Part shown: positions 8,898 through 17,342 of the stretch, piece by piece | How positions within the stretch are numbered: position 1 is the stretch's first letter | Layout: every line of letters starts with the position of its first letter | Made by a program: the position numbers and the translations under genes | Assembly: GCA_047602425.1 (NCBI GenBank) | Contig: JASGHG010000001.1 | Location: forward strand, 832,001-896,000 | Length of the DNA: 64,000 bases | Reading direction: 5' to 3' | From: Nibricoccus sp. | Lineage (GTDB): Bacteria > Verrucomicrobiota > Verrucomicrobiia > Opitutales > Opitutaceae | The notes under the pieces: model-generated | The model's input: the letters and a program-made list of their open reading frames with translations, nothing else | The model's database searches: none | Told to the model about the DNA's origin: nothing

Positions 8898-11687
<2,790 letters not shown>

Positions 11688-13759: not shown

Positions 13760-13791
13760 AAAAAAGCATCTTCAGATGAAGATGCTTTTTT
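13760..13791. terminator. Bidirectional terminator
   Basis: Perfect inverted repeat aaaaaagcatcttca-ga-tgaagatgctttttt. Confidence 0.85.
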
Positions 13792-13844: not shown

Positions 13845-14615
13845 TTAGCCTATCGCACCATATTGTCGGAGAATTTTCATGTATCGCTCTAGTTTCTCCG
13901 GATCCATAGTCGAATCGAGGGCAAGAGTGACATTTATCTGAGCGCGCGGAACCGAATGCGAAGATAAAGATTCGCGATTTGATGCAGCGCCAGTGCCCTC
14001 TGCATTGCTTCCAACACCTGAACCGTCGTCAGTTCGAACTGGGGTGTCTACTGGAGTGCTATCGTCTGTTCTACCCTCCTCCACTGCTGTTGCTTCAGAC
14101 GACTTAGCCAAATTGGAAATCGCAATTCCATCTCCACTTTCAGTCGCAACGCCCGCAAAAAGGGCCGACTGAACAAATATATCGACACACTTATCGACAA
14201 CATCTGGGTGTACCTTCAATTGAAGAGCTTGTTGGCGTATTTTGGCACGAGAGACTGTATCATTTTGGAAAGTCTCGAAAATCATTTTGAACACTGGCGG
14301 TTTCAGAAGCGCAGTCCTAATCAAGGGGGCTACTTCTCCGTCTGGCGTAGAATTTATGGCCCGTGCAGCGCCCGTTGCGTCGTACGCATCCGTTTCACCT
14401 GTGAGGAGATCATATTGCTTCAATGCCGATGCCCGAATTTTTCCCTCAGAGGTAGCACTATTGAACACCCCTTTGAGGACAACTGTGTCCGGTTGCGGTC
14501 CTGTGTGTGTTTTTGCTACGAGCTTCTTAGCGTATTCAACCGCCTGCTTGAGAGGGACGTTTGGAAAGCGCGTACCGCCTTTGCGCCCACCCCTGGGTAT
14601 CTTGGTTTCAGCCAT
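13845..14615 (-). CDS. Hypothetical protein: wHTH-like N-terminal domain, low-complexity linker, short C-terminal domain (DUF5343-like layout)
   Basis: 256-aa ORF with FPNVPLKQAVEYAKKL...ASALKQYDLL...ALLKPPVF. Starts 2 bp after the TIR gene stop. Confidence 0.75.
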   Translation of the reverse strand: MAETKIPRGGRKGGTRFPNVPLKQAVEYAKKLVAKTHTGPQPDTVVLKGVFNSATSEGKIRASALKQYDLLTGETDAYDATGAARAINSTPDGEVAPLIRTALLKPPVFKMIFETFQNDTVSRAKIRQQALQLKVHPDVVDKCVDIFVQSALFAGVATESGDGIAISNLAKSSEATAVEEGRTDDSTPVDTPVRTDDGSGVGSNAEGTGAASNRESLSSHSVPRAQINVTLALDSTMDPEKLERYMKILRQYGAIG

Positions 14616-14617
14616 AT

Positions 14618-15544
14618 TTATTTGCGTTTTAAGGTTTCTACGAGTTCACGGAGGCCATCTTTATATGATTTACTGAAGTCGGCGTATTTCTTGTCCTTCA
14701 GCAGAGTCGGAATTTCACATTCACTTATCTTGAGCGGAAGCACCACGACGTTACGTCGTTCCACCTCCGAAATTAGTGCTCCACTGAGCTCTTTTTGTAC
14801 CCATGTGGATCCCACAGATGCTTCGCTCAAAGCAATAATGAAGTAGTCGCTTTGCGCGAGGCCCTGCCCGATTTTCTCCGTGATTGAATCGCCAACTAAA
14901 ATTCGCTGCTCATCGAGCCAGACCTCCACACCAACTGCTACCAGATCTGAAGCGAGTTGCCGGACAAAGGGTTTGTCTTTGGAGCTGTGCGAAAGGAAGG
15001 CTACGACTTTTTTTGCGTCCTTTTCGTGACGGGTCTCTTTTTGCTTGGCGGCAGCGTCGACCAAATCTTCGACGCCTATATGCGGATCAAGAGCCTTCAG
15101 TTCAAGAGCCCATTTTAATAGCGGTGCGATCGCATTCTCTACATAATTCTCAACGCCGATCATCGTTGCAGCTTTCCGCACCGCTATCGAATGATTGTCA
15201 CCGAGGCTTAAGAATTGCCGAGTATGAATGATTAGGGGCAATTTAAACAGCGACTCCTTAAGAACCGCCTCTTTTTGTTCACGCTCCCCTTTGTATGGGT
15301 AGGGAAGACGCAACGTGTAAGCATCGCCAATTTCTTCGATCAGCCGTAGCGTCAGGCAATTTTTGATGACTTTGCCCGCGGTTCTTGGATCGATATCGGC
15401 AAACTGCGTAATTTTTTTTAGGGACGCCTGCCCGATCCATGCAATAGCATCGAGAACAGCGAATATTGAATCAACTCCGACTGGTTCAAAACGTAAGCTA
15501 CATTCCCTCGACCCATTAGCCAGGCGTCTAATCTTAGTACTCAT
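14618..15544 (-). CDS. TIR-domain protein with an uncharacterised helical/wHTH-like N-terminal domain
   Basis: C-terminal TIR_2 motifs: AFLSHSSKDKPFVRQLASDL, VWLDEQRILVGDSI, SEASVGSTWVQKEL, YADF. Confidence 0.9.
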   Translation of the reverse strand: MSTKIRRLANGSRECSLRFEPVGVDSIFAVLDAIAWIGQASLKKITQFADIDPRTAGKVIKNCLTLRLIEEIGDAYTLRLPYPYKGEREQKEAVLKESLFKLPLIIHTRQFLSLGDNHSIAVRKAATMIGVENYVENAIAPLLKWALELKALDPHIGVEDLVDAAAKQKETRHEKDAKKVVAFLSHSSKDKPFVRQLASDLVAVGVEVWLDEQRILVGDSITEKIGQGLAQSDYFIIALSEASVGSTWVQKELSGALISEVERRNVVVLPLKISECEIPTLLKDKKYADFSKSYKDGLRELVETLKRK

Positions 15545-15713: not shown

Positions 15714-15729
15714 TGAGGTTTTTCACAAA

Positions 15730-15759
15730 CCACCGCGTTGAGGTCAACGCGGTCCACCT
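15730..15759 (-). repeat. REP element (family A)
   Basis: accgcgttga-gg-tcaacgcggt ccacct, which reads AGGTGG + palindrome on the minus strand. Confidence 0.8.
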
Positions 15760-15776
15760 CGATCAGGAATACCCGC

Positions 15777-15990
15777 TTAGCTCGTGCCGGCGGGTTGCGG
15801 AGTTTTGCCGGTGGCGGGAGTTTTGGCGGGGAGTTCGGCGACGTGGTCGATGATCACTCGCGCGCGGGTTCAGGCTTCGACCAGGCGTTTGCCGGCGATC
15901 AAACCGTCGAATTACACCACGAGGTCGTTGAGGGGAGGGACCGCGCGTTTACGACAGCGAAACAGAGGCCTTCGCCAAAGCAGATATAGG
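15777..15990 (-). pseudogene. Degraded 3' remnant of a hypothetical gene
   Basis: Minus-strand frame ...PLNDLVV*FDGLIAGKRLVEA*TRARVIIDHVAELPAKTPATGKTPQPAGTS* with in-frame stops. A homologous remnant lies at 17420-17515. Confidence 0.55.
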
Positions 15991-16137
15991 TGGCCGAGAC
16001 TGCGGCTGCTTGTCACCCGACTGAGGTTCGAACCGTGTAAAAACCCGCCCGGAGGCGTCTCGGGAGCAAAAGAGGTGGTGTGAAACCTGGAAAAATAGGT
16101 GCAATTGCAGGTCACTTGCGTGCAGAAGCGCGCCGCA

Positions 16138-16450
16138 CCGTGTAAATCGGTGGCCGCAGCGTGTCAGCTGGCCGCCGGAGCGTGTCAATCGACTGCCGGA
16201 GCGTGCGAGTGCCCTGCCGATGCGTGTAAGTCGGTCGCCGGAGCGTGCGAGCTTTCCACCGGCGCGTGTAAGTTGGGCGCCGGAGCGTGCGAGTTGTCCG
16301 CCGACGCGTGTCAATCGACCGCCGCAGCGTGTAAGTGGGTCGCCGACGCATGTTAATTGCAAAACGGTTGAAGACAGCGCGCCGCCGCAGCGTGCAAATT
16401 GGTCGCCGGCACGTGTCAGTCGCTCCCCGCAGCGTGCGAGCGGTCCGTGT
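16138..16450. repeat. Degenerate 21-bp tandem array (~15 units; heptad-peptide coding)
   Basis: GCGTG core recurs at an exact 21-nt period (16159, 16180, 16201 ... 16390, 16411, 16432). + frame reads ACQLAAG ACQSTAG...; - frame reads LTRCGGR LTRVGGQ... Confidence 0.9.
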
Positions 16451-16479
16451 TGTGGTGTAAACCTGAGAGTCCGACCGAT

Positions 16480-16667
16480 CCAACGCGTTGAGCCGTTTCG
16501 ACAGGCTCAAGGTCCCGAGTTAGTCGAGGGGGTCAATGCGTTCCATCTATCGAGCTCCAGAGTGCTCCTTCCGACACTGTCCACTTCCGAGGTAGAGCGG
16601 CTTCACCGAAGACGCTTTTCTGAGCCCATCAGCCAAACCAACGCGTTGGGGTCAACGCGTTCACCTT
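16480..16667. repeat. REP-cluster direct repeat, copy 1 (with a 39-bp insertion)
   Basis: Aligns with 17194-17342 and contains three REP palindromes. Confidence 0.9.
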
Positions 16668-16711
16668 TATGAATCCAATGATCTCTCCGACAAGCTGCGT
16701 CCTGCTTCGAG

Positions 16712-17176
16712 CTATTCGGCTTTGTTAGGGCTCCACCACCAAATCCAATCGTCCTCGGTTTGACACAAATCCTTCACGACTGGATTTCGCCGAATGTACC
16801 ACCACTTCTCATCGCCCTGTTTTTCACTGCGCAGGCGATGGTCGAAGAAATTTTCCTGCCATTTCACCTTCTGAAAGCGTGCTGTGCCGCGTTTCCAATT
16901 CCGCATCACCTGCGCCATCGGTTTGTCGGGAGCAAAGGAAAGCAGCGCATGGAGGTGATCCGGCATGAGCAAAACCAAGCTGCACCACCAGAGACCTGTA
17001 CCGTGATAACGTCGCACGGCATGCAGGAGATCCGGAGCCAAATGCGCATCGATCAGCGGCGTCGCCTGTTCCTTGGAGACTCTGATGCGTATGTGATACA
17101 AGGCGCCATCCTCGACCCAAGAAGGTACTTCATGACGCAATCTACCCGGGTATTTCGTTCGCTCCGAATCAGCCAT
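16712..17176 (-). mobile_element. REP-associated tyrosine transposase (RAYT/TnpA-REP, IS200-like Y1 HUH)
   Basis: LMPDHLHALL (HUH), WQENFFDHRLR and YIRRNPV (catalytic Tyr), flanked by REPs. Confidence 0.9.
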
Positions 17177-17193
17177 AGGCAGGCAATGGCGAA

Positions 17194-17342
17194 CCAACGC
17201 GTTGAGGTCAACGCGTTCCATCTATCGAGCTCCAAAGTGCTCCGCCAGACACTGTCCACTTCCGAGGTGGAGCGGCTTCACCTGAAGACGCTTTCCGACC
17301 CATCAGCCAAACCAACGCGTTGGAGTCAACGCGTGCCACCTT
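17194..17342. repeat. REP-cluster direct repeat, copy 2
   Basis: ccaacgcgttgaggtcaacgcgttccatctatcgagctcc...gaggtggagcggcttcacctgaagacgc...ccaacgcgttggagtcaacgcgtgccacctt. Confidence 0.9.

Follow-up and report, generated by a model that had tools for sequence, protein, structure and literature searches.

A TIR protein and a predicted double winged-helix partner form a conserved two-gene cassette, probably defensive, in Nibricoccus

Two adjacent genes of a Nibricoccus genome were predicted, from their letters and translations, to encode an undescribed defence system, in which a TIR protein and a partner with a related N-terminal domain sense DNA together and activate NAD+ cleavage. The locus raises the question of whether these two genes are a genuine unit, what their N-terminal domains are, and whether such a system is already known under another name. 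We analyzed the pair within its window, the whole 64,000-nucleotide stretch of contig JASGHG010000001.1 to which all positions below refer, and named the first gene A and the second gene B.

The locus and its two proteins

Both open reading frames of the original prediction were recovered, co-oriented and separated by 2 nt at the junction TAA-AT-ATG (Table 1). The pair is indeed more AT-rich than its flanks. Its GC content is 0.47-0.49 versus about 0.61 on the left flank, and at 0.486 it ranks among the lowest 1.2% when the genome (57% GC) is cut into 1.7-kb windows. GC3 is 0.49 and 0.44 for the pair, as against 0.82 for the window gene at 8898-11687. The borders also agree with the prediction: the perfect hairpin, a likely terminator, and the truncated gene on one side are present, the latter being the C-terminal remnant of a DUF3738 gene, and the REPs on the other side correspond to REP-like palindromes accompanied by an IS200-like transposase ORF. 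The A-B pair is single-copy in the genome, where gene A is the sole match to the family TIR profile. Among the five flanking genes scanned we found no ThsA, cyclase or Argonaute, in line with the absence of such partners noted before. A search for a clean empty site found none; the neighbouring GNAT gene stands in other surroundings in two genomes of the same genus.

Table 1. Positions of the cassette and of its flanking features in the window
Feature	Position	Strand	Description or basis
Gene A	14618-15544	minus	308 aa; HTH/wHTH in tandem, then linker helix, then TIR
Gene A N-terminal domain, residues ~15-172	15029-15502	minus	wHTH, then second HTH (DSSP of model, HHalign)
Gene A TIR domain, residues ~180-305	14630-15007	minus	Pfam TIR_2; structural matches
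Gene A catalytic-type Glu252	14789-14791	minus	invariant in alignment
Gene B	13845-14615	minus	256 aa; predicted to have a basic double winged helix, then a disordered acidic linker and a C-terminal module
Gene B N-terminal double wHTH (predicted), residues ~7-170	14106-14597	minus	structure alignment (VIA-align); net charge
Gene B linker	13950-14105	minus	pLDDT ~53; acidic
Gene B C-terminal module, conserved 30 aa	13848-13949	minus	invariant columns across homologues
Perfect hairpin with flanking A and T tracts	13760-13791	none	likely bidirectional terminator closing the cassette
DUF3738 remnant, last 59 aa	13548-13727	plus	27 bits versus cut-off of 22; flank, outside the system
Upstream flank, outside the system	15717-17334	none	REP-like palindromes, tandem repeat, transposase ORF
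21-nt tandem repeat	16112-16447		in the upstream flank
IS200-like/REP-associated transposase ORF	16712-17221		Y1_Tnp, E 3.5e-4, below cut-off

The TIR domain with an intact WxxxE motif, said to lie behind a helical domain in gene A, was readily confirmed. Pfam TIR_2 matches residues 183-302 (E 1.5e-27, 97 bits versus a cut-off of 28), and within this region the motif STWVQKEL includes W248 and E252, both invariant in 52/52 aligned homologues; E252 is retained in every complete A. The gene A model (pLDDT 88, pTM 0.83) runs from a wHTH through a second HTH and a long helix to the TIR. We used the whole model for the fold search, and only TIR matches came back, with SPARTA TIR-APAZ at the top (Z 11.1, rmsd 2.7, 125 aligned) and AbTir and other NADase-type TIRs also among the best. 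The TIR of gene A is likely a NADase. In the N-terminal domain, which is almost neutral in charge (+1), the conserved stretch D52-R54-G57-K58-N62 sits on the predicted recognition helix. All PADLOC matches of gene A lie in or beside the TIR, and no PADLOC or NCBIfam model covers the N-domain.

Gene B matched zero families in Pfam, PADLOC and NCBIfam at E≤1, and neither Pfam nor the model revealed an enzymatic, membrane or ligand-pocket domain. In its model (pLDDT 83 on average and higher than 90 for residues ~21-170), two winged helices precede a disordered linker, and a short helix module forms the C-terminus. When aligned by VIA-align, the model matched BrxA (7zge; Z 9.8, rmsd 3.5, 151 aligned), FokI (Z 9.4), N.BspD6I (Z 9.2), 3bhw (Z 9.0), SspB (Z 8.0) and BpuJI (Z 7.7). 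Proteins with a single wHTH score Z 5-7 in this comparison, and values of 8-10 appear only moderately above the helical-fold background. Foldseek returned nothing for gene B at E≤0.001 and listed the same folds at E ~0.01-0.07. 3bhw is described as a BrxA homologue and BrxA as a dsDNA-binding protein (PMC9240713) that shares the two-HTH recognition mode of FokI and BpuJI (PMC9240713; PMC12839542). Our prediction for the N-domain of gene B is a double winged helix similar to BrxA, FokI and SspB, with the two-HTH fold that BrxA, FokI and BpuJI use for DNA recognition. The tandem winged-helix folds proposed earlier for both proteins thus find support in the BrxA/FokI-like model of B, and partly in the model of A, in which a wHTH is followed by a second HTH.

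The N-domain of gene B carries an average net charge of +5, and the linker of 41-68 aa has a net charge of -3 to -18, with a mean of -9.4 (37 homologues). In the C-terminal module, D234, D238, K241, L242 and L249 are invariant across 84 homologues, and this module is also kept beside partners of the HEPN type and nuclease type described below.

Co-occurrence and spread of the pair

Protein searches found 201 relatives of B and 247 of the A N-domain; among the 120 A matches listed, all carry a TIR except three shorter proteins. A GTDB scan with B yielded 53 loci, and the 51 with a B N-domain match form the count. The survey revealed strict pairing, as expected from the original prediction: in 48/51 loci, B is immediately preceded on its own strand by a TIR-type A. 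Two of the remaining loci lack a TIR and have upstream a protein of 340-350 aa whose C-terminal part bears an RxxxxH motif (hereafter HEPN-type), and one lacks upstream DNA. Ten of the 48 were not scored as a full-length A in one ORF, some being contig ends and some frameshifts. In a metagenome sample of 34 loci, 29 had a B N-domain match, and in 22 of these a TIR-type A stands upstream of B (seven of the 22 are apparently one gut sequence repeated); the others comprise two HEPN-type loci, four without upstream DNA, and one true orphan B (L087). Conversely, for 10 of the 12 best A matches there is a B match on a contig of equal length, as read by eye, and one A-B match pair has consecutive locus tags.

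The GTDB loci of B span Acidobacteriota, Verrucomicrobiota, Pseudomonadota, Bacteroidota, Planctomycetota, Gemmatimonadota and Bdellovibrio, and the flanks of the pair are unrelated between loci. Across the 53 loci there is no third conserved gene, and other neighbour clusters reach at most 4 loci. GC content of the cassette is below that of its flanks in 40/49 loci (mean difference -5.3 points), and a search of 60 relatives of this genome did not find the cassette. Tree distances of A and B correlate (rho 0.51 over 37 pairs, while the best of 999 permutations reached 0.32), as expected of genes inherited together. Taken together, the cassette is a real, tightly conserved and horizontally spread two-gene unit, whose distribution is sporadic.

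Enrichment in defence islands, another expectation for such a pair, proved weak in bacteria. Of 252 neighbours within 2.5 kb, 150 were scanned for defence genes; these had been called by a longest-ORF rule, and some may be spurious. PADLOC at E≤1e-12 matched 7/150 neighbours in 6 loci (raw count), some of the matches being generic kinase or TIR domains. Most Pfam-annotated neighbours are housekeeping genes. A few bacterial loci adjoin restriction-modification, PD-T7-3, second TIR, transposase or integrase genes. B was absent from the plasmids, phages and IMG/VR sequences searched, and searches for the pair in plasmids, phages, E. coli and viral contigs came back blank; for E. coli, a betaproteobacterial copy of the cassette had no blastn match in 5,426 genomes. 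We also noticed a short A fragment on two Salmonella plasmids.

Homology of the N-terminal domains and exchange of the effector

Direct comparison of A and B failed: BLASTP found nothing, and HHalign of narrow alignments gave 0.7%. A link emerged through the HEPN-type family, whose N-terminus aligned with that of A by HHalign at 99.2% (E 7e-20, 140 columns) and with B at 87.5% (152 columns). The latter value rose to 96.6% with a broader B alignment, which includes archaeal sequences weakly matched by the HEPN-type profile, and 87.5% is the more independent figure. An N-domain profile built from TIR-type proteins only matches several HEPN-type proteins over the whole N-terminus, down to E 5e-23 in a set of 150 sequences. 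Because the N-terminus of this bridging family matches both, we conclude from profile similarity that the N-domains of A and B are distant paralogues. The predicted kinship of the two domains is therefore upheld by this indirect route.

A profile search of 1.84 billion representatives returned 233 proteins at E≤0.001. The search alignment held one full-length HEPN-type protein, so that its HEPN part was scored too, favouring such proteins. From the best 150 of the 233, we took 88 non-TIR proteins of at least 280 aa and aligned 86, the two excluded being P0366 (repeat-like, 1013 aa) and P0250 (short at the N-terminus). The RxxxxH motif is nearly universal among them (R272 in 84/86, H277 in 86/86), and 5/86 match DUF4145, which we take to be a HEPN family. 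These relatives seem to carry a HEPN-like domain in place of the TIR. A replacement of TIR by HEPN had been put forward as an example of effector swapping, and the 86 aligned HEPN-like relatives, together with the HEPN-type genes beside B, indicate that this swap exists.

Where the HEPN-like domain replaces the TIR, the architecture of B is unchanged (L047, L051, L067 and L089). In all, the effector slot holds TIR, HEPN-like, TIR/NDT-like or nuclease-like domains, while the wHTH parts and the C-terminal module of B stay constant. The TIR/NDT-like domain occurs in L068 and L072, the latter with a PADLOC TIR effector match, and the nuclease-like domain, recognised by eye, in L076 and the metagenome locus L109. 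HEPN-type genes adjoin B-like genes at the archaeal-phylum loci L063, L065 and L067, and an acidobacterial HEPN-type gene (L134) has a similar partner upstream. Loci L119 and L120 have at least five wHTH genes, among them a wHTH-ABC-ATPase next to a PIN gene, and the archaeal arrays adjoin ABC-ATPase+PIN, Schlafen, DUF2270, HD-CE and HerA genes. We also found a run of wHTH genes without an effector (L125) and stand-alone double-wHTH genes of 150-166 aa (L069-L075, L124).

The archaeal phylum of L047 is probably the Asgard archaea, going by its Atlas label. The HEPN-type profile matches 18/350 further genomes of that phylum, 2/300 of the phylum of our genome (one inspected match being an ABC ATPase tail), 2/350 of Pseudomonadota and 4/300 of Acidobacteriota, where some of these phylum-sample matches cover the HEPN part only. 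In nitrate/sulfonate ABC ATPases, this profile additionally matches the AAA_assoc_C tail. Since the domain family occurs on ordinary ABC ATPases, neither DNA binding nor defence follows from the fold alone.

Possible mechanism, alternatives and known systems

With constant wHTH parts and a variable enzyme of toxic type, the TIR would be the effector, and the wHTH pair a sensor or scaffold. We consider the cassette probably defensive, and its best reading, at a probability of roughly 0.58, is a gated TIR NADase for abortive anti-phage or anti-plasmid defence. In such a system, A and B may co-assemble, their wHTH modules gathering on invader nucleic acid. The acidic linker of B might mask the basic DNA-binding face until a trigger appears, and the C-terminal module might oligomerise B. 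Assembly would cluster the TIR domains of gene A, with the result that NAD+ is destroyed and the infected cell arrested. SPARTA offers a precedent, as nucleic-acid-triggered clustering activates its TIR NADase, and by analogy the TIR studied here could be a NADase activated in the same manner. Because the recognition helices are conserved across phyla, the trigger would be a DNA structure or a conserved phage protein, not a variable sequence.

We considered whether the wHTH proteins might act first by coating invading DNA and blocking its expression or replication, leaving the TIR only as a backup. This model has been proposed for the poly-wHTH systems in a preprint that also notes effector-less wHTH runs (bioRxiv 10.64898/2026.10.19.760177), and the effector-less run and stand-alone double-wHTH genes found here would suit it. 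For the present pair we regard it as unlikely, given that conservation is higher in the TIR (mean identity 0.67) than in the two wHTH domains (0.56 and 0.51), that the TIR glutamate persists in every complete A, and that the wHTH domains are not diverging rapidly in the TIR clade.

Alternatively, A could be a constitutive NADase toxin held in check by B as antitoxin and autorepressor, the two persisting as a selfish addiction module without phage sensing. The tight two-gene operon, its sporadic spread and mostly housekeeping neighbours would be compatible with this, as would the predicted DNA-binding fold and acidic disordered linker of B and the single B without A. However, the toxin gene stands first, a homologous N-terminal module is common to both proteins, and the five or more paralogues in archaeal versions fit a multi-subunit sensor better; furthermore, B is found on none of the plasmids searched. 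An addiction module is thus improbable.

In a Thoeris-like arrangement, the TIR of A would make an ADPR-derived messenger, and B would be a new effector responding to it. Weak ThsB profile matches exist but are confined to the TIR, and a survey lists 29 putative Thoeris effector types, some of unknown function, although its main text is silent on winged, HTH or DNA-binding effectors (bioRxiv 10.64898/2025.12.03.692087). As B keeps its architecture when a HEPN-like domain takes the place of the TIR, it would be independent of a TIR product, and a constant B with a variable effector argues against B as the receptor of a TIR-made messenger. B also has no domain of an enzymatic, membrane or ligand-pocket kind, and the TIR has its best structural matches among SPARTA NADases; a Thoeris-like role is very doubtful. 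Equally hard to credit is a chromatin or transcription regulator pair coupling NAD+ turnover to stress: the wHTH is a generic fold with kinship to AAA_assoc_C, a domain of ABC transporter ATPases, and island linkage is weak, but the cassette combines rarity (0/60 relatives), low GC and swapping among toxic-type effector domains, all typical of conflict systems.

TIR effectors with a known trigger are mostly activated by a cyclic nucleotide, by an Argonaute carrying a guide, or by a phage protein. If the gated NADase reading is true, a TIR gated by restriction-enzyme-like winged-helix domains would represent a different input for these effectors, and it would provide a first function for uncharacterised domains spanning bacteria and archaea (AAA_assoc_C, possibly DUF5343 and DUF7226).

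We then compared the pair with described systems. PADLOC, proposed at the outset as a check for a named system, matched no named, tested one. Thoeris was rejected, as the sole conserved partner is B, which has no known effector domain and is kept when the TIR is replaced. For CBASS, Pycsar and Retron-TIR, matches are confined to the TIR, with no cyclase, SAVED/STING or reverse transcriptase and no conserved third gene. BREX was likewise rejected, as no linked modification or ATPase core genes are conserved in the 53 loci. SPARTA likewise consists of two genes, and its TIR belongs to the same structural class (Z 11.1), but our pair lacks an Argonaute, APAZ or guide-binding module, and the PADLOC Aga models match only the TIR part of gene A (residues ~154-308) and leave B unmatched. 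The E. coli systems TIR-I, TIR-III, TIR-IV, TIR-VII and TIR-VIII each consist of two proteins, require the TIR for defence, and have partners partly without known domains (PMC11350192). Our pair likewise has two proteins and a partner without a known domain; identity with the published E. coli TIR-I to IX is unlikely, given the blastn search of E. coli genomes.

BrxA, SspB and the FokI/BpuJI/N.BspD6I group share the two-HTH fold with B, which aligns with them over 147-160 residues at Z 7.7-9.8. Unlike in these proteins' own settings, the 53 loci have no conserved partner of the methyltransferase, PglZ, BrxC, Ssp or nuclease kind, and sequence identity to B is only 7-13%. PDC-M34, a PADLOC candidate of two overlapping genes, pairs a DUF5343 protein with a HEPN-like protein, presumably Swt1-like. 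The DUF5343 protein has the layout of B and a similar C-terminal strand-helix module, and among named ESM Atlas clusters it is DUF5343 that comes closest to B (0.87). In contrast to our pair, the HEPN-like partner is a stand-alone protein downstream, without a wHTH fusion. Membership of B in PF17278/PDC-M34A was rejected: it has no match at E≤1, whereas true DUF5343 proteins match PDC-M34A at 1e-46 to 1e-55. HHalign of B against DUF5343 gave 12% (E 0.0024, with a two-sequence template), and homology between them is only suggestive.

Our literature search, which covered few subscription journals, found no paper describing the A-B pair, none for DUF5343 or PDC-M34, no occurrence of 'tandem winged helix' among the papers listed, and nothing relevant on AAA_assoc_C/DUF7226; poly-wHTH appeared in the preprint alone. 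This preprint, dated 22 Oct 2026, computationally predicts poly-wHTH (PRA-wHTH) systems, in which several wHTH domains occur as separate genes or tandem copies, up to many-copy arrays, together with an effector that is most often HEPN but also TIR, some runs being effector-less (bioRxiv 10.64898/2026.10.19.760177). Measured against the preprint's available text, our family is similar in having two double-HTH domains related by homology, in the archaeal relatives' arrays of at least five genes, and in an exchangeable effector (HEPN-like, TIR, TIR/NDT-like or nuclease-like), and the archaeal relatives L119, L120 and L122-L125 fit that text. Several points differ. In the same text, effectors are encoded by separate downstream genes and the wHTH domains are called rapidly evolving, whereas the TIR here is fused and comes first and the partner is fixed and well conserved; the acidic linker and C-terminal module of B and the link to the BrxA/FokI fold do not appear there. 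Poly-wHTH family members are also expected upstream of ParA plus Tox-RelA pairs; neither ParA nor RelA was found among the scanned neighbours of family members, a sample with few divergent loci. Since the archaeal arrays fit the description well, the balance tips towards the pair belonging to the poly-wHTH class, compared by description. The word 'undescribed' in the original prediction is accordingly probably too strong with respect to this preprint, which predicts poly-wHTH systems with HEPN or TIR effectors, and it stands insofar as no named, tested system matches.

A bolder idea, which we advance only tentatively and think rather less than probable, is that two paralogous FokI/BrxA-like double winged-helix subunits might together sense foreign DNA structure, independently of guides and methylation, and thereby turn on an exchangeable toxin: a TIR in bacteria, or a HEPN, nuclease or TIR/NDT-like domain in archaea and in other bacteria. 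This would be an unnamed immune architecture separate from PRA-wHTH, built on a domain common to the AAA_assoc_C tail of nitrate/sulfonate ABC ATPases. In either case, the 1.7-kb pair is the smallest and most conserved form that we found of a computationally predicted family, and it therefore offers the easiest way to test a class of the poly-wHTH type.

Variant, possibly mobile and orphan forms of the A-B pair

At three loci (L005, L028 and L046), gene B is directly followed by a second TIR or TIR-like gene, which is unrelated. What appears to be one and the same pair also occurs on seven gut metagenome contigs (L091-L097), where its neighbours are a tyrosine-recombinase-like gene and an excisionase-type HTH gene, and on one of the seven also a C5 methylase gene. 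These neighbours suggest that the gut pair is carried on a mobile element.

We also noticed a single protein of 349 aa (P0269) that joins most of gene A, including the TIR domain, to the linker and C-terminal module of B; a deletion may have fused the two genes, or else the protein is an artefact of assembly. The only clear orphan B was found at L087:807-1586, where B is full-length and an unrelated gene encoding 222 aa replaces A upstream. On a Salmonella plasmid (L133), a short piece of the A N-domain, without TIR and without B, is flanked by fimbrial and autotransporter genes, and the same match was observed on a second plasmid.

Features at the related loci and upstream of the cassette
Feature	Location	Remark
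Second, unrelated TIR or TIR-like gene	L005:8765-9613	directly after B
Second, unrelated TIR or TIR-like gene	L028:8857-10014	directly after B
Second, unrelated TIR or TIR-like gene	L046:6003-7748	directly after B
Short piece of gene A N-domain	L133:4001-4255	Salmonella plasmid
REP-like palindromes surrounding IS200-like transposase ORF	window:15717-17388	
Tandem repeat	window:16112-16447	21-nt unit, ~16 units
IS200-like transposase ORF	window:16712-17221	
Leucine-rich-repeat protein, 600 aa	window:18452-20254	acidic C-terminal region
Nitrate/sulfonate ABC ATPase, ordinary, with C-terminal AAA_assoc_C	L061:1441-2790	double-wHTH profile match
Nitrate/sulfonate ABC ATPase, ordinary, with C-terminal AAA_assoc_C	L117:1468-2799	double-wHTH profile match
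Archaeal double-wHTH gene array	L119:3092-9058	at least 5 double-wHTH genes
Archaeal double-wHTH gene array	L120:3616-10143	at least 5 double-wHTH genes

Repeats and neighbours upstream of the cassette

An open frame through the tandem repeat would encode a 7-residue repeat containing Cys, and two further arrays are present elsewhere in the genome. The REP-like palindromes gave 11 to 23 strand-matches genome-wide with 2-3 mismatches allowed, each palindrome being tallied on both strands. The leucine-rich-repeat gene lies ~3 kb from the cassette, on its upstream side.

The double-wHTH module outside the pair

The double-wHTH profile matched the AAA_assoc_C domain of two transporter ATPases (L061 and L117; E ~1e-8 to 1e-9), and thus the same module is present in a transporter subunit. 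Several archaeal genomes (L069-L075) carry double-wHTH genes of ~150 aa that stand alone in ordinary gene surroundings, without effector or partner. Both archaeal arrays include a HEPN-type member, and in them a wHTH-ABC-ATPase gene adjoins a PIN gene; the top PADLOC matches of this ATPase were NsnB and AriA.
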